NCBI GenBank assembly: GCA_001805445.1
Contig: MHGF01000023.1
Location: 18,859-82,858, forward strand
Direction: 5' to 3'
Length of the DNA stretch: 64,000 nucleotides
DNA from: Omnitrophica WOR_2 bacterium GWF2_43_52
GTDB lineage: Bacteria > Omnitrophota > Gorgyraeia > Gygaellales > UBA12090
Shown here: positions 3,636 to 59,312 of the stretch, piece after piece
How positions within the stretch are numbered: the stretch's first letter is position 1
Layout: each line of letters begins with the position of its first letter
Position numbers and translations under genes: made by a program
The notes under the pieces: model-generated
What the model was told of the DNA's origin: nothing
What the model saw: only the letters and a program-made list of their open reading frames with translations
Database searches by the model: none

Positions 3636-3880
3636 CATTTGTTCTGCCCTTTCTTTATCCCCATATAAAGTATACACAAATTATTTGACATTGCCAAGTA
3701 TAAGATTTATAATTAGTTACTACAGTTCCGACGAAGCCGGGATCCCTGCAGGGCCGGGAAAAAAGTGGCAGCTCGCGGGGGATTTTAAAGAGTAACAGAG
3801 GCCCCGCTTATCAGGCGGGGTTTGGAATTAGTTATTGCTGAAAAACCCCTGTTTTTTCAGCGGTAACTAATTAAAAACTA

Positions 3881-8770: not shown

Positions 8771-8824
8771 CGCTGGCAAGTGAAGTGTTGCGGATAGCAA
8801 GAATTTATGTCACGGAGCACTATC

Positions 8825-8989
8825 GCGCTGTAAACTTAATTAGTATTAATAGTTCGCAAGTTTGTTAGCTTAAGCGAATGCGCGTGTCAGCTGTTTAGCT
8901 GTTTGGCTCAGTAGCTGTTTAGTTAAATTGTTAATCAGCAAAAGAGCAAATGAGCTAAGCAGCTACTGTTAAAATATACTTTTACAGCG
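8825..8989. repeat. Repeat family C, copy C1
   Basis: About 90% identical to 53105-53212 plus 53339-53408. Here it is uninterrupted; the 53-kb copy carries a nested B element. Confidence 0.65.
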
Positions 8990-9017
8990 CAATGGTAATC
9001 TTCTTAAGGTAGTAATA

Positions 9018-13915: not shown

Positions 13916-14323
13916 ATAGATTCGTTTGAAAAAGTATATTTAGTTGCCCGCCTCGCGCAGGATAAGAAAGCAGAGGATATCAAGCTCCTGGATATGCGCG
14001 GGGTGAGCAACTTCTGTGATTTCTTCGTTCTCTTGACCGTATCCTCAAGCCGAAGGGCGCAGGCTGTTTCTGACAGTATAAAGGAAGAGCTGTTGAAGCA
14101 GCAGGTCAGGCATAAGGCAGAAGAGGGTACCCCTGAGTCAGGCTGGCTGCTGCTTGACCTATACGATGTCGTAGTGCATATCTTTGACGCCCAGGCGCGA
14201 GAGTTCTTTAACCTTGACAGGCTCTGGGCTGATGCCCCAAGTTTGGAATTTCCCCTAAAGAAACATGTCTCTAAACAAGGTAGAAAATCTTCTCACCGAA
14301 CTCCTCGCCAGAAAACTCAATGA
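13916..14323 (+). CDS. rsfS: Ribosomal silencing factor RsfS (Iojap); start codon uncertain (no ATG, GTG or TTG upstream in frame)
   Basis: DKKAEDIKLLDMRGVSNFCDFFVL…GWLLLDLYDVVVHIF…REFFNLDRLW matches RsfS. The homology begins upstream of the first ATG (13994). RBS GGAG lies at 13894-13897. Confidence 0.7.
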   Translation: MDSFEKVYLVARLAQDKKAEDIKLLDMRGVSNFCDFFVLLTVSSSRRAQAVSDSIKEELLKQQVRHKAEEGTPESGWLLLDLYDVVVHIFDAQAREFFNLDRLWADAPSLEFPLKKHVSKQGRKSSHRTPRQKTQ

Positions 14324-16013
14324 AACGTTCAATGCCCAAGAGCCATTATTTGGGCTTCAGGGACAGCTTTTAGAGTCTCCCAAGGATGAAGCCTTTGGTG
14401 ATATTTCTACCTCGGTTGCCCTCAAATTAGCCGCTATCCTTAAGCGTTCCCCCCGGGACATCGCGAAAGAAATTGTCGCGTGGCTTTACAAAGAAATAGC
14501 GGTGTCCTCGCTAAAAACCTCCATTGAGAAAATCGATATCGCGGGAGCGGGATTTATTAATTTTTACCTGTCGAAAGAATATTTTTATTCTCTTCTGAAA
14601 GAGGCCATTAGCTCGGAGTCGCCTTTTATGGGGCAGGCTAAAAAAGACAGGCGGGTGCTTGTTGAGTTTGTAAGCGCTAACCCTACAGGCCCGCTTTCTG
14701 TCGCCCATGGACGCCAGGCGGCAGTGGGGGATGCGCTGTGTAATGTGCTTAAATATGCAGGCTATGAACTAACCCGGGAATATTATCTCAATGATGAGGG
14801 CAATCAAATCAATATCTTGGGTAAGTCTATCGCCTTGCGTTTACAGGAACTAAAAGGAGAAAGAATAGAATTCCCCGAGGATCACTACCAGGGGGAGTAT
14901 ATCATAGATTTGGCAAAAGAATTGTATCAGGCCAGGGACGAGGGACGAGGGACGAGGGACGAGGGACCATGGACGAGGGATGAGGAACGAGAGACGAGAG
15001 ACGATGGACGAGAGACGATAGGCGAGAGACGATGGACGATAGACGATTGCCGCGACTATGGAGTAAAAAGAATCTTAGAAATAATTAAAAAGGAGCTTGA
15101 GGATTTCGGGGTTAGGTTTGATGCGTGGTATAGCCAGGCATCGTTACAGAAATCAGGCAAAATTGAGGAAACGCTTGCTTTGTTAAGGAGTAAAGGCTTT
15201 ATTTATGACCAGGATTCGGCAGTATGGTTTGCATCAACAAAATTCGGAGACGATAAAGATCGCGTCGTTATTAAATCTGACGGCAGCTATACCTATTTAG
15301 CCCCTGATATCGCCTATCATCAGGATAAATTCAGGCGGGGTTTTGACTGGTTGGTTAATCTGTGGGGCCCTGACCATCACGGCTATATCGGGCGGATGAA
15401 GGCCGCGGTAGAGGCATTAGGAAGAGAGAAAGAGGCTTTGAATGTCGTTATTGTCCAGCTGGCAACGCTTTATAAAGATGGCAAGGTCGTTTCTATGTCA
15501 ACCCGTAGAGGCGAGTACGTTACCTTGCGCCAGGTAATAGATGAGGTAGGAGTGGATGCGGGACGGTTTTTTTTCTTAATGCGCCGTACCGATAGCCACT
15601 TGGATTTTGATTTAGAGCTTGCCAAAAAACAAAGCTCTGAAAATCCCGTGTATTATATTCAATACGCCCACGCGCGCATTGCTAATATTTTAGCTCATGC
15701 CGGTATAGCGCCTGCTCAAATCAAAAACGCGGATATGTCGCTCTTAAAGGAAAAAGAGGAACTATCGTTACTTAAAGCAATTGCCCACTTTGAGAGCTGC
15801 CTGAAAATTGCCGAAATCCAGCTTGATCCTTATTGCGTCAGCACCTATCTGCAGGCTCTGGCAGAAAGTTTTCACCGCTTTTATGATCTTCATAGGGTAT
15901 TAGTTGACGATGTCCCGCTTAAAACCGCGCGGCTGAGCCTTATTTTAGGCTGTAAAACTGTTATTGCCGCGGCCCTTAAACTCTTAGGAGTAAGCGCTCC
16001 GGAGAAGATGTAA
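14265..16013 (+). CDS. argS: Arginine--tRNA ligase
   Basis: ANPTGPLSVAHGR (HIGH-class motif) and a C-terminal anticodon-binding domain. It carries an in-frame simple-sequence insert at 14933-15050. Confidence 0.93.
   Translation: MSLNKVENLLTELLARKLNETFNAQEPLFGLQGQLLESPKDEAFGDISTSVALKLAAILKRSPRDIAKEIVAWLYKEIAVSSLKTSIEKIDIAGAGFINFYLSKEYFYSLLKEAISSESPFMGQAKKDRRVLVEFVSANPTGPLSVAHGRQAAVGDALCNVLKYAGYELTREYYLNDEGNQINILGKSIALRLQELKGERIEFPEDHYQGEYIIDLAKELYQARDEGRGTRDEGPWTRDEERETRDDGRETIGERRWTIDDCRDYGVKRILEIIKKELEDFGVRFDAWYSQASLQKSGKIEETLALLRSKGFIYDQDSAVWFASTKFGDDKDRVVIKSDGSYTYLAPDIAYHQDKFRRGFDWLVNLWGPDHHGYIGRMKAAVEALGREKEALNVVIVQLATLYKDGKVVSMSTRRGEYVTLRQVIDEVGVDAGRFFFLMRRTDSHLDFDLELAKKQSSENPVYYIQYAHARIANILAHAGIAPAQIKNADMSLLKEKEELSLLKAIAHFESCLKIAEIQLDPYCVSTYLQALAESFHRFYDLHRVLVDDVPLKTARLSLILGCKTVIAAALKLLGVSAPEKM
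14933..15050 (+). repeat. Tandem heptanucleotide-type repeat (GGACGAG)n / (GAGACGA)n inside argS, in frame
   Basis: GGGACGAGGGACGAGGGACGAGGGACGAGGGACC…GAGAGACGAGAGACGATGGACGAGAGACGATAGGCGAGAGACGATGGACGATAGACGA encodes a low-complexity R/D/E/G/T insert (RDEGRGTRDEGPWTRDEERETRDDGRETIGERRWTIDD). Confidence 0.8.
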
Positions 16014-17707
16014 TGCCAAAGCTATGGAAGCTAAAACCCGCCGATATCCCCTTACAAAAAAAGCTTAGCCAGGAATTAGGCATTTCTCCAATCCTCGCCC
16101 AGGTATTGATTAACCGTAACATACGCTCGCAAGAATCCGCGCGGGAATTCTTGAATCCCCGTTTATCAGGCCTCCATGATACCAAGCTTCTTCCGGATAT
16201 AGATAAGGCAAAAGAAAGAATTCTAAAAGCCTTTAAGAATAAGGAAAATATTTTGCTGTTTTCCGATTACGATGCTGACGGCTTGACGTCTTTGGCGGTT
16301 TTAAAGATTGCCTTCGGGAAATTGGGAATACCTCATGAGTACTACGTGCCTCATAGGCTTAAGGAAGGATATGGCTTAAGTGAACATTTGGTTACGTATG
16401 CCCATGAACACGGTTTTACTTTAATCATAACTCTTGACTGCGGGATAAGTAATAGCAAGGAGATAGAGGCTCTTAAAAGGCTGGCTATTGATACAATCGT
16501 TATTGATCATCATCAGCTTGACGCGGGAAAACTTCCTCCTGCCCACAGCGTGATTAATCCTAAACGCCAGGATTCCCGGTATCCTTATCAGGAGTTGGCA
16601 GGGGTAGGGCTTAGCTATAAGGTTGCCGTAAGCCTTCTTGATAGCTTAATGGAGGAAGAACTCGATTTGGTGTGTATAGGCACTATCGCGGATGTCGTGC
16701 CGCTGGTAGGGGAAAACCGTATTATTGTCAAAGAGGGCTTGAAAAAACTTGTTTCCACGAAGCGCCAAGGCCTGCAATCGTTAATAGAGGTCACCGGGCT
16801 CAAGAACAAGGCAATCACGGCCGAGCATGTAAGCTTTATTTTGGCTCCTCGCATCAATGCCTGCGGCAGGATTGGCCCATCAGATGCCGCGCTTGAACTG
16901 CTCTTGTGTGACAGCGATGACAAGGCAGGCCTTTTGGCGCGTGAATTACACGACAAGAATAAAGAGCGCCAGCGTATAGAAAGCCGGATTTTGCAAGAGG
17001 CATTACAGCAACTAGAGGCTGAAATTGATTTGGCCAACGAAAGGGTTATCATTGTGCATAATGATAACTGGCATCAGGGTGTCTTGGGGATTATTGCCTC
17101 AAAGATAAGCGATCGGTTTCACCGCCCGGCATTTGTGGTTTCGTTTTCTGATGGGCTGGGCAAAGGCTCGGGGCGTTCCATTGAGAACTTTCATCTCTTT
17201 GAAGGCTTGAGGGAATGCAGCCAGCATCTGGTGGGTTTCGGTGGCCATAAGCGCGCCTGCGGGATGAGTATCCTAAAAAAAGAAATTGAAAATTTCAGAA
17301 AAAGCATCAACAGGATCGCTTTCGAAAAATTGACCCCTCATGACCTTATGCCGAGTATCACCATTGATGCCCAGATGAGCTTATCCAGTCTTTCCCTGGA
17401 TTTACTGCAGGAGCTTTCTTTGTTAGAGCCTTTTGGCAACGCCAATCCAAAGCCGATTTTCTCAAGCGCAAACCTTTCTGTAAAATCAAAACCCGCCCTC
17501 ATGGGCAAAGATACCCTGAAATTTTGGGTGACTGACGGTAAACAGGCCTATCAGGCGATAGGCTTCGGCATGGGCCGTTATTTCGATTTAGTCAGCTGCT
17601 CCGAAACAATAAATCTCGCCTATAGAATTTCCCTTGATACCTGGAATGGAAATAACCAACTGCAGCTTGAGATAGAAGATATCCAGCAATGTCAATGCCA
17701 GGCATAG
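16013..17707 (+). CDS. recJ: Single-stranded-DNA-specific 5'-3' exonuclease RecJ
   Basis: DHH motifs (DYDADG, DHH at LDCG…IDHHQ), a DHHA1 domain, and a C-terminal OB-like domain. Confidence 0.9.
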   Translation: MPKLWKLKPADIPLQKKLSQELGISPILAQVLINRNIRSQESAREFLNPRLSGLHDTKLLPDIDKAKERILKAFKNKENILLFSDYDADGLTSLAVLKIAFGKLGIPHEYYVPHRLKEGYGLSEHLVTYAHEHGFTLIITLDCGISNSKEIEALKRLAIDTIVIDHHQLDAGKLPPAHSVINPKRQDSRYPYQELAGVGLSYKVAVSLLDSLMEEELDLVCIGTIADVVPLVGENRIIVKEGLKKLVSTKRQGLQSLIEVTGLKNKAITAEHVSFILAPRINACGRIGPSDAALELLLCDSDDKAGLLARELHDKNKERQRIESRILQEALQQLEAEIDLANERVIIVHNDNWHQGVLGIIASKISDRFHRPAFVVSFSDGLGKGSGRSIENFHLFEGLRECSQHLVGFGGHKRACGMSILKKEIENFRKSINRIAFEKLTPHDLMPSITIDAQMSLSSLSLDLLQELSLLEPFGNANPKPIFSSANLSVKSKPALMGKDTLKFWVTDGKQAYQAIGFGMGRYFDLVSCSETINLAYRISLDTWNGNNQLQLEIEDIQQCQCQA

Positions 17708-17872
17708 TCAGATGAAAGGTAACAGTTTAGTTTTTGGAAGTATCCGTCGGTGTCATTGCGAGCCCCGAAGGGGCGAAGCAATCTTATAAAAAGACTGCTT
17801 CGTCGCTGCCGCTCCTCGCAGTGACACGGATGCTTCTACGATGAAAGACATTTTGTTTATGCCTGGCATTGA
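17693..17872. mobile_element. Composite MITE-like insertion: ATGCCAGGCAT palindromic terminal inverted repeats enclosing a family-A repeat (17750-17827)
   Basis: Ends are CAATGCCAGGCATAGTCAGATGAAA … TTTGTTTATGCCTGGCATTG. The same two ends occur adjacent to each other at 37937-37985, and variants flank 42899-43226. The left repeat supplies the recJ stop codon; the right end abuts the rpmB stop. Confidence 0.6.
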
Positions 17873-17873
17873 A

Positions 17874-18101
17874 TCAGGCTTTTTTGACTTTTCTGGATTT
17901 GATGCACTTAGTGCAGGCAAAGACAGAGGCGGCCTTTCCTTCAATAATGGCCTTTATTCGCTGCAGATTGGGCTTGATGAGCCGTAAGTTACGGCGGGAA
18001 ATCTTGCTTCCTGTGCCGCCCTTAGCTTTATATTGTCCTTTACGGGACATTACCGCTCCCGCGACCGCTTTCTTACCGCAGTAATAACATATTTTACGCA
18101 T
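17874..18101 (-). CDS. rpmB: 50S ribosomal protein L28
   Basis: MRKICYYCGKKAV…NLQRIKAI…CTKCIKSRKVKKA is the bL28 pattern. Confidence 0.85.
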   Translation of the reverse strand: MRKICYYCGKKAVAGAVMSRKGQYKAKGGTGSKISRRNLRLIKPNLQRIKAIIEGKAASVFACTKCIKSRKVKKA

Positions 18102-27429: not shown

Positions 27430-27705
27430 TAGCGAAACTAATAGTTTTTGCAGCGAATGGTTCGACTACGCTCACCATTCGTACTGAGCAAAGTCGAAGT
27501 ACGAATGATGATTTTAGGCAAAAAGTCCGAATAGTTTCGGGAATCCCGATGCTCTCTAAGTATCATCGGAGCAATATCGGGACGACGAGGATGTGTGAGC
27601 CCCGACGAGTCCGGCGGGGCGAGTTCCGCAGTCGCCGAAACTATGAGAGGCTTTTTGACGTGAAAAAATCGTCCTGAGCGAAAAAATTATTAGTTTTGCA
27701 AACCA
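27430..27705 (+). ncRNA. Highly structured ~275-bp intergenic element of unknown identity, bounded by imperfect direct repeats (ACTAATAGTTTTTGCA / ATTATTAGTTTTGCAA)
   Basis: It contains multiple nested stem-loops (CGAATGG…CCATTCG; GTACTGAGCAAAGTCGAAGTAC; CGGGAATCCCGATG…CATCGG; CCCCGACGAGTCCGGCGGGG). The ORF 27411-27677 across it is implausible. I found no other copy in the window. Confidence 0.3.
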
Positions 27706-35285: not shown

Positions 35286-35300
35286 GCTCGTTACCACTGA

Positions 35301-35430
35301 GATACACGAATTCCCACGAATTGCACACTAATCATCACGAATACAGCGACGAAGTAATTCGTGTGTATTTGTGTGTAATTTGTGCCTATTCGTGCAAAAT
35401 AAAGGTTTTTCAGCAGTAACTAAACTATTA
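35301..35430 (+). repeat. Repeat family B, copy B1 (CACGAATTACACAC-type structured ~125-bp element)
   Basis: More than 90% identical to 43036-43165 (reverse complement) and 53213-53340. It has internal inverted repeats and ends in TTTTTCAGCAGTAACTAA. Confidence 0.7.
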
Positions 35431-37725: not shown

Positions 37726-37936
37726 CCCATGGCAACCTTGAAAAGTTACACACTCTATGATATACTATAAGTAGTAATTTAGAAAGAGACCTATTGTTAA
37801 AGGCAAATCCGCCGTAAGGCGGAGACGCAAAGCCAATGAGCCCGCCAACGATATGTGGCGAGGTAGTCAGGTTGCCAAAGGGTAATAAGTTTTAAGAATC
37901 CTGCAGGCATTCTGCGGGATTTTTTTATGGAGTATT

Positions 37937-37985
37937 CAATGCCAGGCATAAACAAAGGTTTTTTCATCTGACTATGCCTGGCATT
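37937..37985. repeat. Back-to-back ATGCCAGGCAT terminal repeats (CAATGCCAGGCATAAACAAA-GGTTTT-TTCATCTGACTATGCCTGGCATTG): apparent solo or empty carrier element
   Basis: Both end types seen at 17693-17872 are here directly adjacent with nothing between them. Confidence 0.55.
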
Positions 37986-38012
37986 GAAAAAGCTTTGACA
38001 AGGAGGATAAAA

Positions 38013-40457
38013 ATGGATTCCTACAAAAATAAAAATAACAAAGGTGTGGCATTAATTATGGCTTTGGGGGTTTCCAGTGTTTTGCTTACCTTGAGTATGG
38101 CCTATGTGGGCGGGGCTATACAGGAGAGTAATCTCAGCCAGCGTTATCAGGATTCTATGACTGCGCTTTATGAGGCAGAGCGGGGGTTAGCCTATGCCTT
38201 CGGTGAGGCGCAAAATGCGGGGTATGACTGGTTTACCCATGATGTAGATAGCAATGATGCCAATAGGAATGGCGATACCACGGAATTCATAAGGCCAGCC
38301 AACTCTCCTGGAGTAACATTAGGAGATGTTAGGGATAATCAGGGAATAGTAATCAATAGTGCAGGTAATTACCAGATACCCTTAGGAGGGGCTTCTCTTA
38401 TTCAGGTGCGCAGTTACACCAATCCTAATGATACAAACCAGATGTTTCTTATGGCTCAAGCTACCGTAGGCTCTGCCAGCCGTACCTTAAAGACCAAGAT
38501 TATCCGCAGGCCGCTATTCAAATATTTTTATTACTATCCTGGGTGGAAATATTTTGAAGGCAGTGATTTTGACGGAGAAGGAATAGGCGGTGTCTATGTC
38601 AAAGATGGTATAACCTTACGCAATGTAAATTTTAAAAACATAACTGAATTAGCCACCGGTCCTAACGGATATATCGTAGCGGCAAGTGATCAATATACCT
38701 CTCCTAAAGGAGTAGATTGGTTCATAGGGGGGATTAACGGAAAAGCGCCTTTACCCTCTAAGTATGACAGCAGTGGGCAACTTGTTTGGGATGACGGATA
38801 TAACGGCAATAACCCTTGGGGGCAGTGGAGGTGGCCGCCTCAGTACTCCTTTCCGTGGGACTGGAGGCGCGTCTATGACCATTTTTTTAATCCAGGAACG
38901 GTTAACAAGGTTACTCTCCCTACTAAGGATGATGCAGTGAATAATTTATGGCCAGAGTGGCAGTGGAATAAATATCCGCAGAGTGATAATTCCGAAGTAC
39001 CGGTACAGTTTTGTAACCCTTGCGGGGAGCGCGATATTAACGGAGATGGAGTGAAGGATACAGTCTATGCCACTCCCCAGTATTGGGCGGCGTTTTCAGA
39101 AGCAAGATGCGGTGCGGGGAAAACAAATAACGAGTGCGGCCTCATTGACCCGGATTTCTGGAGGGATAAGATTTATGACCGCCAGACTCCGACCGAAATG
39201 GTAAGGTATCTTCATACCAAAAAGCAGGCAGGGGCATGGCAGGGGTGGGTTAATAGCGCTACCATTCCTTTAGGACAAGACCAGTATAACGAAGGCCAGC
39301 CTTTGTCTTCAGTGGTAAAAGAGGGACAAACCGGCGGCTATGATATTGAAATGCCTAAGATTGATCAAAACTATGCCGGGCTGGCGAAAAAGGACGGCCT
39401 CTATATCGGTGAGGATGGGGTGTATCTTAACGGAAGCCCGGACTCTTTGCCATCCTGCATAAGAGATAATGTAGAATTTTTTAATACGCTCCGTCCGCAG
39501 GATAGAAACGGGGATGGCACCCTTGACCCGGAAAATGTCTTAGAGATTAATATTGAGCAATGCCGGACGACAAGGGAGGTGCCGAATAACGGCATTATCT
39601 ATGTTGCCCACAAGAATCTCCGGTTAACCAATGCCAAACAAATGCCGGATAATGGCCTGACAGTGGCCTCTCCTTATAATATCTATATAAAGGGTAATTA
39701 TAACTATGATCCTTCCAATGACCCGGATACGAATGATCGCAACTGGCGCCCGTCTGCGGTTATCAGCAATAGTTATGTCTATATTCTTTCCGGCAACTTT
39801 ACCGACCCTCAGGCTCTGCCTGATTACGTCGTTCCCCGTGAATATCCGTATGAAACAACCAGGATTGCTAGTAACATTGATTATAATAATGCAACCCAAA
39901 GAGCGACTTTGCAAAATAAGGTACAAACTTATTTTGGGTTACCTAATTTTACTATGGCAGGAGTGAACAGCAAAACTGGGCTGGAGAGTAAGATTCGCAG
40001 CCAGCATGCAAGCGAATGTAGCAATACCATGCCTAATATAGCCAGCCCTACTACGGTAAGAAGCGCTATTGTGTCTCCCAAAGATATGACTGGGGTAAGC
40101 TGGGATGAAAACAAGTTTTATCAGCTGGAGCGCTGGCCTACCAATCCGGTGCTAAGAGGCGCGTTTATTCTTTTGGGAGAAAGCTGGGTAAAGGATAACG
40201 AGGGTAATGATATACAGGATATCCCTATTTATGGTTATGACTGGCAAGGCGTTCCTATTAATACCCCCCGGAGTGTACGCAGAGGCACAGGCGGCAGTGC
40301 GACTATTGACAAGGGAGAGGATGTAATGTGGATCAATACGCCGGGCTCCAAGTTAAAATACGAATACTTGTTTGACACTGATACTATGCCTCCCGGGAAT
40401 CTTGCCGGTGGCACGGAAGCCGGCTGGCAGGAGGTTAGCGATTTCAATCATTCCTAG
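38013..40457 (+). CDS. Giant (~815 aa) PilX_N-domain minor-pilin-like protein, paralog 1; candidate pilus-tip adhesin
   Basis: The N-terminus NKGVALIMALGVSSVLLTLSMAYVGGAIQESNLSQRYQDSMTALYEAERG matches the PilX N-terminal domain. The body is rich in N/Y/W/G/D. The C-terminus …AGWQEVSDFNHS is shared with paralog 2. The ORF track starts at 37974. Confidence 0.65.
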   Translation: MDSYKNKNNKGVALIMALGVSSVLLTLSMAYVGGAIQESNLSQRYQDSMTALYEAERGLAYAFGEAQNAGYDWFTHDVDSNDANRNGDTTEFIRPANSPGVTLGDVRDNQGIVINSAGNYQIPLGGASLIQVRSYTNPNDTNQMFLMAQATVGSASRTLKTKIIRRPLFKYFYYYPGWKYFEGSDFDGEGIGGVYVKDGITLRNVNFKNITELATGPNGYIVAASDQYTSPKGVDWFIGGINGKAPLPSKYDSSGQLVWDDGYNGNNPWGQWRWPPQYSFPWDWRRVYDHFFNPGTVNKVTLPTKDDAVNNLWPEWQWNKYPQSDNSEVPVQFCNPCGERDINGDGVKDTVYATPQYWAAFSEARCGAGKTNNECGLIDPDFWRDKIYDRQTPTEMVRYLHTKKQAGAWQGWVNSATIPLGQDQYNEGQPLSSVVKEGQTGGYDIEMPKIDQNYAGLAKKDGLYIGEDGVYLNGSPDSLPSCIRDNVEFFNTLRPQDRNGDGTLDPENVLEINIEQCRTTREVPNNGIIYVAHKNLRLTNAKQMPDNGLTVASPYNIYIKGNYNYDPSNDPDTNDRNWRPSAVISNSYVYILSGNFTDPQALPDYVVPREYPYETTRIASNIDYNNATQRATLQNKVQTYFGLPNFTMAGVNSKTGLESKIRSQHASECSNTMPNIASPTTVRSAIVSPKDMTGVSWDENKFYQLERWPTNPVLRGAFILLGESWVKDNEGNDIQDIPIYGYDWQGVPINTPRSVRRGTGGSATIDKGEDVMWINTPGSKLKYEYLFDTDTMPPGNLAGGTEAGWQEVSDFNHS

Positions 40458-42898: not shown

Positions 42899-43226
42899 TA
42901 ATGCCAGGCATACACAAGCAGTGCTCTGTCAAATTATATTTTAACTGCAGCTCTTTAGCTGATTAGCTAATGAGCTAAACAGCCGATGAATTCATTAGCT
43001 TGAACTAACGAACCTGCGAACTATTAACAATTAAGTTAGTTACTGCTGAAAAACCTTTATTTTGCACGAATAGGCACAAATTACACACAAATACACACGA
43101 ATTACTTCGCCGCTGTATTCGTGATGATTAGTGTGTAATTCGTGGGAATTCGTGTTTAAAAGACGTTTATTCAGTGATAACTAAGTTAACAACAAATAGT
43201 ATACAAGTTGTCTATGCCTGGCATTT
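42899..43226. mobile_element. Composite MITE: ATGCCAGGCAT-type terminal repeats enclosing a degenerate family-C fragment (42945-43035, minus) and family-B copy B2 (43036-43165, minus)
   Basis: Left end AATGCCAGGCATACACAAGC, right end GTTGTCTATGCCTGGCATTT. The interior matches the C and B elements at 53.1-53.4 kb. Confidence 0.6.
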
Positions 43227-43317: not shown

Positions 43318-43545
43318 ATGTTAACGAAACGTTCTACCGTATATTTTGATCCGGCTATCCACAGGGTTCTTAAGCTTATGGCTATTGAAACAGAACAGTC
43401 AATTTCTGATATTGTTAATGAGGCTATCCGTCATGAATTAGCTCAAGATCAGGAAGACCTTGCGGTATTCGCGAAAAGGGCAAAAGAGCCGAGCATGTCT
43501 TACGAGGCACTCTTAAAGAAATTAAAGGCCGATGGGAAGATATAG
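43318..43545 (+). CDS. Type II antitoxin (RelB/DinJ/ParD-like, ribbon-helix-helix)
   Basis: 75 aa; the N-terminal strand and helices (STVYFDPAIHRVLKLMAIETEQSISDIVNEAIRHEL) fit the pattern. It overlaps the toxin gene by 14 nt. Confidence 0.7.
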   Translation: MLTKRSTVYFDPAIHRVLKLMAIETEQSISDIVNEAIRHELAQDQEDLAVFAKRAKEPSMSYEALLKKLKADGKI

Positions 43546-43795
43546 GCTCGAGATTAAGAAATCAGCTGTTAAGGAAATCGAACGCCTGCCTCGCAAGGAT
43601 ATGAAGGCAGTTCTTGGAAGAATAGAATCTCTTTCCGATAATCCTAGGCCGCGCGATTGCAAGAAATTATCAGCTCAAGAGAAGTATCGGGTTCGTTGCG
43701 GGAATTATCGAATACTTTATTCTATCGAGGATGATATTCTCATCGTTTTTGTCGTTAAGGTAGGGCATCGTAAAGATGTTTACCGGGGTAACTGA
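43532..43795 (+). CDS. RelE/ParE-family toxin
   Basis: …YRVRCGNYRILYSIEDDILIVFVVKVGHRKDVYR is the RelE/ParE C-terminal signature. Confidence 0.8.
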   Translation: MGRYRLEIKKSAVKEIERLPRKDMKAVLGRIESLSDNPRPRDCKKLSAQEKYRVRCGNYRILYSIEDDILIVFVVKVGHRKDVYRGN

Positions 43796-44043: not shown

Positions 44044-44138
44044 ATCTTCTCAGGCATTTTCTGTAAAGAGAGTAGCGGGAGTTTGTTTGCCTTTGGCATA
44101 GGTGAGAAAAAACAATGTTTTTGGTAAAAGAAAACAAT

Positions 44139-44255
44139 AGTAACAGTTTAGCTCCTGGAAGTGTCCGTCGGTGTCATTGCGAGCCCCGAAGGGGCGAAGC
44201 AATCCTATAAAGAGACTGCTTCGTCGCTGCCGCTCCTCGCAGTGACACGAATGTT
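44139..44255. repeat. MITE family A, copy A3, in the rpsO leader
   Basis: About 95% identical to 17718-17835, including flanks GTAACAGTTTAG…GGAAGT(A/G)TCCGTCG and terminal repeats GTGTCATTGCGAG / CTCGCAGTGACAC. Confidence 0.75.
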
Positions 44256-44308
44256 TCCGAGGGCTGAACTATTACAAACAATAATGTTTTATAAGCGGAG
44301 GTGTTACG

Positions 44309-52482: not shown

Positions 52483-53090
52483 TGGAGCGTTACTATAGAA
52501 TAATTATTACCTGTGGAGTTTTCACCTTAGGTTTACTCTCAGGCTGTGCTTCGGTAAAAGTTACTCGTACCGAGGTTACGAAAACAGTAGATTTAAGCGG
52601 CAGATGGAATGATACCGACTCACGTTTGGTTTCCGAGGAGATGATTAAAGACTGTCTGGCTCGGCCTTGGTTAGGGGAGTTTACTACAAAAGCCGGAAAA
52701 AGTCCGTATGTCATTGTGGGAACTGTGCTTAACAGAAGTTCAGAACATATCGACGCTCAACTTTTTATTAAGGACCTGGAGGCTGACTTGCTTAATTCCG
52801 GAAAGGTAAAATTTGTCGCTTCAAAAGAGCCTCGCCAAGAAATCCGGGAAGAAAGGGCTGATCAAACGCGATTTTCCTCAAAAGAAACCGCCAAGGCTTT
52901 TGGCAGGGAATCGGGGGCTGATTTTATGCTTCAGGGAACCATTAATTCGGTCACCGATGAGCTTAAGGGTAAGTCTTCCATTTTGTATCAGGTCAATCTT
53001 GAGTTGGTCAACTTAGAGACCAATGAAAAAGCCTGGATTGGCCAGAAGAAAATCAAGAAGATTGTTTCCCGAAGCGCGTTCGGCTTATAA
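52483..53090 (+). CDS. LpoB-like/COG3417-like lipoprotein of unknown function
   Basis: Lipobox LLSGCAS; YVIVGTVLNRS…FMLQGTINSV resembles the LpoB/FlgO-type fold motifs. RBS AAGGAGGAAGG lies upstream. The ORF track starts at 52266. Confidence 0.4.
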
Positions 53091-53104
53091 GTAGCGCACT
53101 GTAA

Positions 53105-53408
53105 ACTTAATTAGTAATAATAGTTCGTGAGTTTGTTAGCTTAAGCGAATGTGCGTATCAGCTGTTTAGCTTTTCAGCTCATTAGCTGTTTAGTTAGTTA
53201 TCAATGAAAAAGCGTCTTTTAAACACGAATTCCCACGAATTACACACTAATCATCACGAATACAGCGACGAAGTAATTCGTGTGTATTTGTGTGTAATTT
53301 GTGCCTATTCGTGCAAAATAAATGTTTTTCAGCAGTAACTAGTTAAATTGTTAATCAGCTAAAGAGCAAATGAGCTAAGCAGCTACTGTTAAAAAATAAT
53401 TTTACAGC
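53105..53408. mobile_element. Nested repeat: family-C copy C2 (53105-53212 plus 53339-53408) interrupted by family-B copy B3 (53213-53340)
   Basis: Aligning it with the uninterrupted C1 (8825-8989) shows the B element inserted precisely at …AGCTGTTTAGTTA|AATTGTTAATCAGC…. Confidence 0.7.
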
Positions 53409-53418
53409 GTACTATTGT

Positions 53419-58934: not shown

Positions 58935-59312
58935 ATGATAGACCGTAAAAAAATAGCCGTAGTCCACATTATCAAAAAGGAGCTTCATTTAAGTGATGAT
59001 GAATATCGGGATATCCTTTTTAAGGCAGCAGGGGTACGGAGCGCAAAGGAACTTGATGAGCAAAAGTTTCGGAAGCTTATGCGCTATTTTGTGCGCAGCA
59101 AATATTATACGATAAATGACAACGGGCTTACCCTGCGCCAGAAGCTATACATCCAGTATTTGAGCCAGCAACTAGGATGGACGGACGAACATTGTACCAA
59201 TTTTATCCGTAAATATTACCATAAGGATTGTCTAGGGCATCTTACCAGAAAAGAGGCGATAAAAGTAATAGAGTCTCTTAAACAAATATTGTTTCATCAG
59301 AGTAAAATCTAA
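58935..59312 (+). CDS. Phage GemA/gp16-like protein (DUF1018-like)
   Basis: KKIAVVHIIKKELHLSDDEYRDILFKAAGVRSAKEL… resembles Mu GemA-family proteins of about 125 aa. Confidence 0.4.
   Translation: MIDRKKIAVVHIIKKELHLSDDEYRDILFKAAGVRSAKELDEQKFRKLMRYFVRSKYYTINDNGLTLRQKLYIQYLSQQLGWTDEHCTNFIRKYYHKDCLGHLTRKEAIKVIESLKQILFHQSKI

Follow-up and report, generated by a model that had tools for sequence, protein, structure and literature searches.

Palindromic repeat P of an Omnitrophota bacterium: a probable target for the nested insertion of miniature elements

We analyzed a stretch of 64,000 nucleotides (the window) from an uncultivated Rifle-aquifer groundwater population that carries the NCBI name Omnitrophica WOR_2 bacterium GWF2_43_52, with a focus on a palindromic repeat, named P here, that fills the gap between the convergent genes recJ and rpmB and brackets a MITE (miniature inverted-repeat transposable element), named A. 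P is a non-coding, hairpin-forming palindrome of 47–54 bp, and we consider it probable that it is a short palindromic repeat, like the hairpin-forming doublets of repetitive extragenic palindromic (REP) elements known as REPINs or like a minimal, ends-only MITE, that was spread in this lineage and later served as a landing site for A and for a second element, C. The original prediction had read this locus the other way around, as a carrier MITE whose palindromic ends pick up other repeats. Judged from sequence, that description is essentially correct as regards the ends, while the carrier reading is reversed, with P as the target. We liken P to both REPINs and minimal MITEs and file it as a member of neither.

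Results

Palindromic unit P and its copies

P was counted in a census region of 79.9 kb (below also 80 kb) assembled from sequence L134, the window and sequence L137. In this region it is present in four copies, all of them intergenic, and it is thus small, non-coding and multi-copy, the empty copies measuring 47–54 bp:

17692..17872, minus strand: site 1, P1 copy interrupted by MITE A, filling the gap between convergent recJ and rpmB; arms at 17692-17706 / 17858-17872, 15 nt, 100% complementary
37935..37988, plus strand: site 2, empty P1 in the 5' leader of a gene for an 814-aa protein, preceded by a cyclic di-GMP (c-di-GMP) riboswitch with terminator-like hairpin and followed by the ribosome-binding site; arms at 37935-37950 / 37973-37988, 16 nt, 100% complementary
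42900..43225, plus strand: site 3, P2 copy split at its center by C carrying MITE B, its ends matching the empty P2 of L134; arms at 42900-42917 / 43208-43225, 18 nt, 94% complementary
L134:4886-4935: fourth copy, empty P2, 4.3 kb upstream of the window, 84% complementary over 25 nt

Each copy comprises two inverted arms of some 15–18 bp, (T)CAATGCCAGGCATA, around an asymmetric loop of 15–22 nt (...ATAAACAAAGG...CATCTGACTAT...) that gives P a polarity, with site 1 lying in the orientation opposite to that of sites 2 and 3 and of the L134 copy. The 11-bp core of the arms had been taken for a perfect palindrome, which it is not: the reverse complement of ATGCCAGGCAT is ATGCCTGGCAT, that is, ATGCC-W-GGCAT with an asymmetric center, and left arms read ...CCAGG... 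where right arms read ...CCTGG.... Reading the sequence at the predicted ends did confirm that they are paired. Exact ATGCCWGGCAT occurs six times in the window, as three inverted pairs (17695/17859, 37939/37974 and 42901/43214) and never unpaired, and ATGCCAGGCAT with at most one mismatch gives 13 strand-matches at seven places in the window, compared to 1.5 ± 1.3 matches in shuffled sequences, 0 of 100 of which reach 13; the seventh place, 56258, has one mismatch and is unpaired. In the 79.9 kb, all eight arm matches with at most one mismatch are paired, and the three found at two mismatches are weaker, unpaired and chance-like. The ends behave as a paired unit, and they form, with three pairs in the window and the one in L134, a real, repeated structure that also occurs empty and brackets other repeats.

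The four copies fall into two subfamilies, P1 (sites 1 and 2) and P2 (site 3 and L134), each with one empty copy. The empty P2 of L134 (TAATTCCAGGCATAAACAAGTGGTATACGAGTTGTCTATGCCTGGCATTA) lies between two genes on the same strand, 15 nt past one stop codon and 17 nt ahead of the next ATG, has a mismatch in one arm, and matches in sequence the ends of site 3; the P2 loop, ACAAGTGGTATACGAGTTGT, is nearly palindromic around GTATAC. At site 2 the original prediction had seen two ends with nothing between them (37937-37985). The copy is indeed empty, but the arms enclose a 22-nt loop and lie in the orientation opposite to that of site 1. This copy folds into a stem of 16–17 bp with a 22-nt loop, at −27.7 (z −6.7) and −29.5 kcal/mol for the two strands as RNA and −17.4 kcal/mol as DNA. 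Overall the z scores of the P hairpins lie between −6.7 and −7.3 for RNA folding and between −4.4 and −7.2 for DNA folding, with DNA energies of −11.7 to −17.4 kcal/mol, and no shuffled sequence equalled them. Elements of the IS200/IS605 type make no duplication and insert 3' of a fixed target of 4–5 nt beside one end. Beside the same end of P stands ATT in both P1 copies and AGAT in both P2 copies; as each subfamily has just two copies, the agreement may be fortuitous or may mean that the palindrome extends further. Reading of the flanks by eye showed no direct repeat around any of the four copies, whichever plausible boundary was taken. A U-tract or T-run after the stem is absent on either strand at sites 2–4 (at site 1 a T6 run begins 9 nt past the stem), and a terminator scan does not call P. 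Lacking a U-tract after its stem, P is not an intrinsic terminator.

Two further ideas were considered and rejected. A sigma-54 promoter built on TGGCA of the right arm needs flanking sequence for its GG-N10-GC spacing, which is present at site 2 only, and CCWGG (a Dcm/EcoRII-type site) is not avoided, with 162 sites observed versus 173 expected. Searching Rfam over the window returned only the c-di-GMP-I-GGC riboswitch, relaxed searches of P, A, B and C staying far below threshold.

MITE A lies within a pre-existing copy of P

The order of events at site 1 can be read from the duplications that flank A. The features involved are:

17692..17718, no strand assigned: left half of P1 at site 1, including the first GATGAAAG copy at 17711-17718
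17719..17839, plus strand: MITE A in P1, 121 bp, 93% identical to 44140-44257, boundaries by alignment
17840..17872, no strand assigned: right half of P1 at site 1, starting with the second GATGAAAG copy at 17840-17847
44140..44275, plus strand: reference MITE A outside P, termini GTAACAGTTTAGC...GCTGAACTATTAC, flanked by direct AAACAATA

At site 1, A is flanked by an exact 8-bp duplication (GATGAAAG at 17711-17718 and 17840-17847), as is the reference copy, with no P nearby (AAACAATA at 44132-44139 and 44276-44283). Having terminal inverted repeats and a duplication of fixed length at two independent copies, A qualifies as a MITE. The site 1 copy has an intact left terminus, GTAACAGTTTAG; its right end keeps ...TAC but is 15 bp shorter than that at 44140. 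A search for other A copies through open reading frames (ORFs) called across A yielded a single truncated foreign copy (L142), on a 636-bp contig without P, which confirms the right terminus seen at 44140. Removal of A together with one duplication, that is, joining 17692-17718 to 17848-17873, restores a P1 of 53 nt, TCAATGCCAGGCATAGTCAGATGAAAGACATTTTGTTTATGCCTGGCATTGAA, which has the same length as the empty site 2, matches it in both arms with few differences in the loop, and folds as a hairpin. From the exact GATGAAAG duplications and the restored P1 it follows that A transposed into the loop of a pre-existing P and was not captured by it. The claim of a carrier MITE picking up repeats accordingly runs in the wrong direction, as the 8-bp duplications flanking A are of P sequence and A, B and C all occur on their own.

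A degenerate P around the 44140 copy of A was considered and discarded, the supposed right arm being the ribosome-binding site and TTG start of rpsO. This copy of A lies between rpsO and a gene pair encoding a ParD-like (ribbon-helix-helix) antitoxin and a ParE toxin (43318-43795), itself directly downstream of the P2 composite of site 3. At 640-760 there is in addition a partial A-like repeat, of which the ...ATTACTTCGTCGCTGTCGCTCCCCGTAATGACAC half is 84% as in A and the left half is different and GC-rich, suggesting a wider superfamily built around a CATTGCGAG...CTTCGTCGC hairpin module.

The recJ–rpmB junction

P is wedged exactly between the two convergent genes that flank site 1:

16013..17707, plus strand: recJ (Pfam DHH/DHHA1/RecJ_OB)
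17874..18101, minus strand: rpmB, encoding ribosomal protein L28, with a stop codon that starts 2 nt past the P right arm

The recJ frame ends in ...GAA GAT ATC CAG CAA TGT, followed by CAA TGC CAG GCA TAG, so that the final four codons (QCQA) and the stop come from the left arm of P (17693-17707, TAG at 17705-17707). The original prediction had placed the recJ stop inside the left end and proposed that the insertion remodelled the RecJ C-terminus; the frame does read through the arm, and only a variable tail is altered. Across 60 homologues the conserved part of RecJ ends ...LQLEIEDI, to which most of the closest ones add 0–3 variable residues. RecJ of an 88% identical relative ends ...EIEDIQLPA, and the protein studied here, ...EIEDIQQCQCQA, has the tail QQCQCQA after EIEDI. 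P changed only the non-conserved tail of RecJ, which is some 3 residues longer, and very probably did so harmlessly. The L28 C-terminus reads ...VKKA here versus ...VKKAL in a relative with 71% RecJ identity. Folded as a whole, with A included, site 1 reaches −89.8 kcal/mol (z −8.5). An identical RecJ protein is present on contigs of GCA_001804465.1 and GCA_003451255.1, as well as in several ENA, JGI and Logan assemblies.

P is absent from the corresponding loci of relatives

Comparison of the recJ 3' end with those of relatives points to P as a later addition. In GCA_023247895.1, whose RecJ is 71% identical and which is the closest relative with usable flanking DNA, recJ ends ...GAT ATT CGT TTA GCT GAA TAA and the rpmB stop follows 11 bp later, with neither P nor A between them; the recJ–rpmB spacer is therefore 166 bp here versus 11 bp there. 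The same picture is seen at site 2, where the orthologues or paralogues in two more distant relatives (44% and 33% identity) have the riboswitch and the terminator-like hairpin and no P, with 18 and 62 nt between terminator and ATG versus 85 nt here. P arms were absent from every relative locus examined, and P is thus lineage-specific at a minimum of two loci.

Beyond these loci, a genome-collection scan with AATGCCAGGCATANNCA gave chance single hits only, its 15 specified bases being too few for 596 Gb; the loci it returned were used as negative control, and their paired hits are unrelated or ordinary terminator hairpins. A metagenome scan with TCAATGCCAGGCATARWCARA gave three matches, unpaired and unrelated, in a collection that seems to be without the source genome and is uninformative on rarity. 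Viral contigs and plasmids yielded no P match.

Two relatives closer in RecJ, with 88% (L127/L128) and 74% (L129/L130) identity, are represented by independent short-read contigs that break 27 and 33 nt past the recJ stop, those of the 88% relative being 1.75 kb long. Such breaks some 30 nt past recJ would fit a different repeat at this place; the visible sequence is not P.

The riboswitch upstream of site 2 (c-di-GMP-I-GGC, 37793-37880, plus strand) scores 64.7 bits versus a gathering score of 59 and is followed by a terminator-like hairpin with a T7 run at about 37897-37927. It is also present at L141:3518-3593 and L140:1211-1334, its link to the gene being conserved in two distant relatives, and it precedes paralogous, fast-evolving proteins of 814 and 803 aa without Pfam domain in the type IV pilus cluster. 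The right arm of P at site 2 holds an ATG (tATGcctggcat, 37974) in frame with the 814-aa gene, the use of which would add 13 residues; the start given in databases is 38013, with AGGAGG 7 nt upstream (window 37974-38015).

Site 3: B within C within P2

Site 3 comprises three layers, the inner two of which are as follows:

42919..43200, minus strand: C element, a complete, shortened variant in reversed orientation, taking the place of the central TGGT of P2
43039..43181, minus strand: MITE B nested in this C, 98% identical to 35304-35423

Here the original prediction (42899-43226) had seen variant ends around a C fragment and a B copy. Both C and B are present, but the C is complete and shortened, with both termini, and not a fragment: stripped of B and of one TAAGTTA, it can be aligned over its full length with the free C copies, located at 8820-8990 and 53090-53410. 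B (termini GTTAC...GTAAC; free copy at about 35295-35424) is flanked at site 3 by direct TAAGTTA (43032-43038 and 43182-43188) and sits 8–15 bp from one C end. Another B lies in the middle of the C copy at 53090-53410, flanked by TAGTTA, with the empty site visible in the C at 8820-8990. Since the two B copies sit at different positions within C, centrally at TAGTTA in the 53090 copy and near one end at TAAGTTA in site 3, they represent separate events. For C itself, no target duplication is consistent across its three copies. An ends-only counterpart exists for B, at 3827-3873, where the B termini form a hairpin (TAGTTATTGCTGAAAAA CCCCTG TTTTTTCAGCGGTAACTA) of −14.4 kcal/mol as DNA (z −6.8) just upstream of an ammonium-transporter/histidine-kinase gene, a structural analogue of P for B.

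Insertions into repeats exceed random placement

Nesting is a general habit of this genome, as seen from the two occurrences of B in C. Four of the eight countable insertions (A 2, C 3, B 3) lie within another repeat. The census region has about 8.6 kb of intergenic DNA (some 11%), and for at least two of five A and C insertions to fall in the roughly 200 bp of P, p is about 0.005; for at least two of three B insertions to fall in C, p is about 0.01. The two composites, P[A] and P[C[B]], each occur once in 80 kb, and both insertions into P lie within a few bases of the hairpin apex. This apex preference could reflect a structure-directed choice of target, as with REP-specific insertion sequence (IS) elements, or could be that of a neutral safe haven in compact intergenic DNA.

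Other features of the window

The surroundings include housekeeping genes (argS, recJ, rpmB, trpA/B, rpsO and pnp) as well as an extensive cluster of type IV pilus / type II secretion-like genes. The Pfam lists for the 79.9 kb contain no transposase, so that a cognate enzyme, IS200/IS605-like or other, as considered in the original prediction, did not emerge there, and no REP-associated tyrosine transposase (RAYT) was seen in the 80 kb either. Strain-level polymorphism at the repeats was absent in 10 loci from several assemblies, all at least 99.7% identical to the window.

Another MITE-like unit, at 27432-27699, has inverted ends GCGAAACTAATAGTTTTT / AAAAATTATTAGTTTTGC 232 nt apart and GC-rich internal hairpins, and lies in a 676-bp gap between pilM and the gene of a 1359-aa GGDEF/AAA protein. 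Within argS (14265..16013) there is a 14-nt tandem repeat (AGGGACG AGGGACG...) of about eight units at 14934-15045, encoding an insert rich in R, D, E, G and T (GRGTRDEGPWTRDEERETRDDGRETIGERRWTIDD); the period of 14 not being a multiple of 3, a change in unit number would shift the argS frame. Elsewhere in the gene, at L004:9447-9458 (window ~15435-15469), ENA assembly ERZ28564302 is 25 nt shorter and argS is called as two ORFs of 415 and 172 aa, owing either to an assembly error or to a genuine variant that shifts the frame. At 58935-59312 (L137:11392-11769), housekeeping genes surround a single GemA-like (Mu-type phage) gene.

Discussion

The course of events that we consider probable would be as follows. 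P would have spread, in the GWF2_43_52 lineage, to narrow gaps between genes, close to where these end, moved by an enzyme that is encoded elsewhere, that would recognize the arms or the hairpin and that would leave no flanking duplication. At site 1 it would have landed on the last recJ codons, replacing a short variable tail and donating a stop codon, and would have stretched a recJ–rpmB spacer of about 11 bp to 166 bp of strongly folding DNA. MITE A would then have inserted at the apex of one P1 with its 8-bp duplication, the fixed length of which suggests a DDE-type transposase acting in trans. C would have inserted at the apex of one P2, to be hit later by MITE B, and the outcome would mimic a carrier with cargo.

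Several observations weigh against this course of events. No target-site duplication was found for P, nor, in the 80 kb, a transposase or RAYT, and its mobility is read from its distribution and its absence in relatives. These relatives are distant (71% for RecJ, 44% and 33% for the site 2 neighbor), and P may have been lost from them by deletion. Just four P copies are present within the 80 kb examined. The entry of C into P2 would follow from the empty P2 and the free C copies only. The repeats are identical across assemblies of the source population, which gives no sign of current activity, and the nesting p-values are rough, being derived from eight events and an approximate intergenic length.

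Three other explanations were weighed. It is doubtful, though conceivable, that P is what deletions have left, reduced to the ends, of a conventional IS or MITE family of the DDE type, in the way the B-termini hairpin appears to be for B, with target duplications that were very short or have decayed. Its long, perfect terminal inverted repeats with almost no interior would agree with this, as would the parallel ends-only B hairpin in the window and the richness of this genome in MITEs of the terminal-inverted-repeat type (A, B and C). However, 0 of 4 copies have a direct repeat at any boundary tested, no longer P-ended element is present in the 80 kb, and the loops differ between the subfamilies with a near-continuous hairpin retained in both, which fits recognition of a hairpin better than recognition of terminal inverted repeats only.

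We regard it as unlikely that P is mainly a functional hairpin kept by selection (for instance to stabilize mRNA 3' ends, direct processing, insulate transcription or bind a protein), as opposed to a selfish mobile element, with the apex insertions persisting since the stem is kept. The position of all four copies, 0–15 nt from a stop codon or in a leader, speaks for such a role, as do the very stable folds, the location of both insertions at the apex with arms that still pair (the site 1 composite folding as given above), and the ATGCC-W-GGCAT dyad of the arm, which would suit a dimeric binding protein; roles of this kind are known for REP elements (PMC1525189). Against it, the absence of P at orthologous sites means that these operons do not have it as a conserved regulatory element, the missing U-tract means that it is not an intrinsic terminator, its contexts are mixed (between convergent genes, in a leader, between cistrons, upstream of a promoter), and the one-arm mismatch of the empty P2 suggests drift. 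A functional hairpin is, at the same time, compatible with P as a spread repeat and later insertion target, and the two are not mutually exclusive. Highly improbable, finally, is that P is a MITE whose ends captured cargo, the composites being moved by a transposase acting on ATGCCWGGCAT ends, for while the same ends do bracket three contents (nothing, A, and C with B) and the arms are perfect in the filled copies and could still be recognized, the exact 8-bp P-sequence duplications around A are the signature of an insertion, A, B and C are all found outside P, each composite occurs once, and P has neither a flanking duplication nor a transposase in the 80 kb.

Returning to P as an insertion target, a case such as this one indicates that varied cargo between repeat ends in compact bacterial genomes may represent a target repeat that was split later, and that internal target-site duplications decide between the two readings. 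It puts on record a nest of three layers (B in C in P) and a palindromic family in Omnitrophota that had not been described before, in a phylum with no cultured models and almost no mobile-element annotation. It is also a clean case in which a small repeat has, very probably without harm, rewritten a stop codon and widened an 11-bp spacer between convergent genes. Apex targeting, if true, could point to a structure-specific target choice, of interest for transposon biology and for site-directed insertion tools. One may go a step further, to a proposal that we hold to be a long shot, and view P as a dedicated landing pad, with two or more MITE families unrelated to each other (A and C) having transposition machinery that recognizes the apex of the extruded hairpin or cruciform as a target, and P itself as a new, GTAG-less class of REPINs in Omnitrophota moved by a hairpin-recognizing enzyme; if true, P would be a structure-addressed safe harbor organizing the build-up of mobile DNA in a compact genome.

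Comparison with known systems

Described REPs have a conserved GT[AG]G head, and to our knowledge no REP or REPIN has been described in Omnitrophota. REPs and REPINs number tens to hundreds in a genome, against 4 copies of P per 80 kb, and go with a RAYT gene (a Y1 HUH transposase) that the repeats usually flank. The P arms, (T)CAATGCCAGGCATA(G/A), are without a GTAG or GTGG head, the arm's own dyad measures only 5+1+5 nt, no RAYT is seen in the 80 kb and the host belongs to the Omnitrophota; in these respects P differs from REPINs. REPINs are inverted REP doublets forming hairpins (PMC3116915), and P likewise is short, extragenic and multi-copy, with two inverted units and a spacer that, as single-stranded DNA or as RNA, fold into a single long hairpin. 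Both insert without a target-site duplication, are found near gene ends and have subfamilies per genome. P shares with MITEs its terminal inverted repeats, of 15–18 nt and 94–100% complementary at sites 1–3, but has no flanking target-site duplication.

REP elements are known as sites of frequent insertion by IS elements from a number of families (IS1397, ISKpn1, IS621, ISPpu9/10, ISPa11 and ISPsy8; PMC1525189). As in those cases, a palindromic extragenic repeat is hit repeatedly here and its halves bracket the intruder; the intruders, in contrast, are the non-autonomous MITEs A and C and not full IS elements, in two of the four P copies. Nested MITEs are known in plants and have also been reported in fungi and cyanobacteria. 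They are mentioned in PMC3227409, and the arrangement of B in C in P, with insertions into older repeats exceeding random placement, resembles them, with the differences that the genome here is a compact bacterial one and that the outermost layer is a palindrome of about 50 bp in place of a MITE of the usual kind with target duplications. Some bacterial MITEs, among them Correia/NEMIS, RUP, ERIC, Nezha and Chunjie (reviewed in PMC3184786), overlap the ends of genes and change their termini. As with these, a repeat at the gene end gives recJ its final codons and stop, leaving the conserved part of the protein undamaged, although P is much shorter, has no detectable duplication and is squeezed between convergent genes that lie 11 bp apart in a relative. 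P is, all in all, a new repeat family of a known kind, namely a REP/REPIN-like insertion target with nested MITEs, in Omnitrophota.

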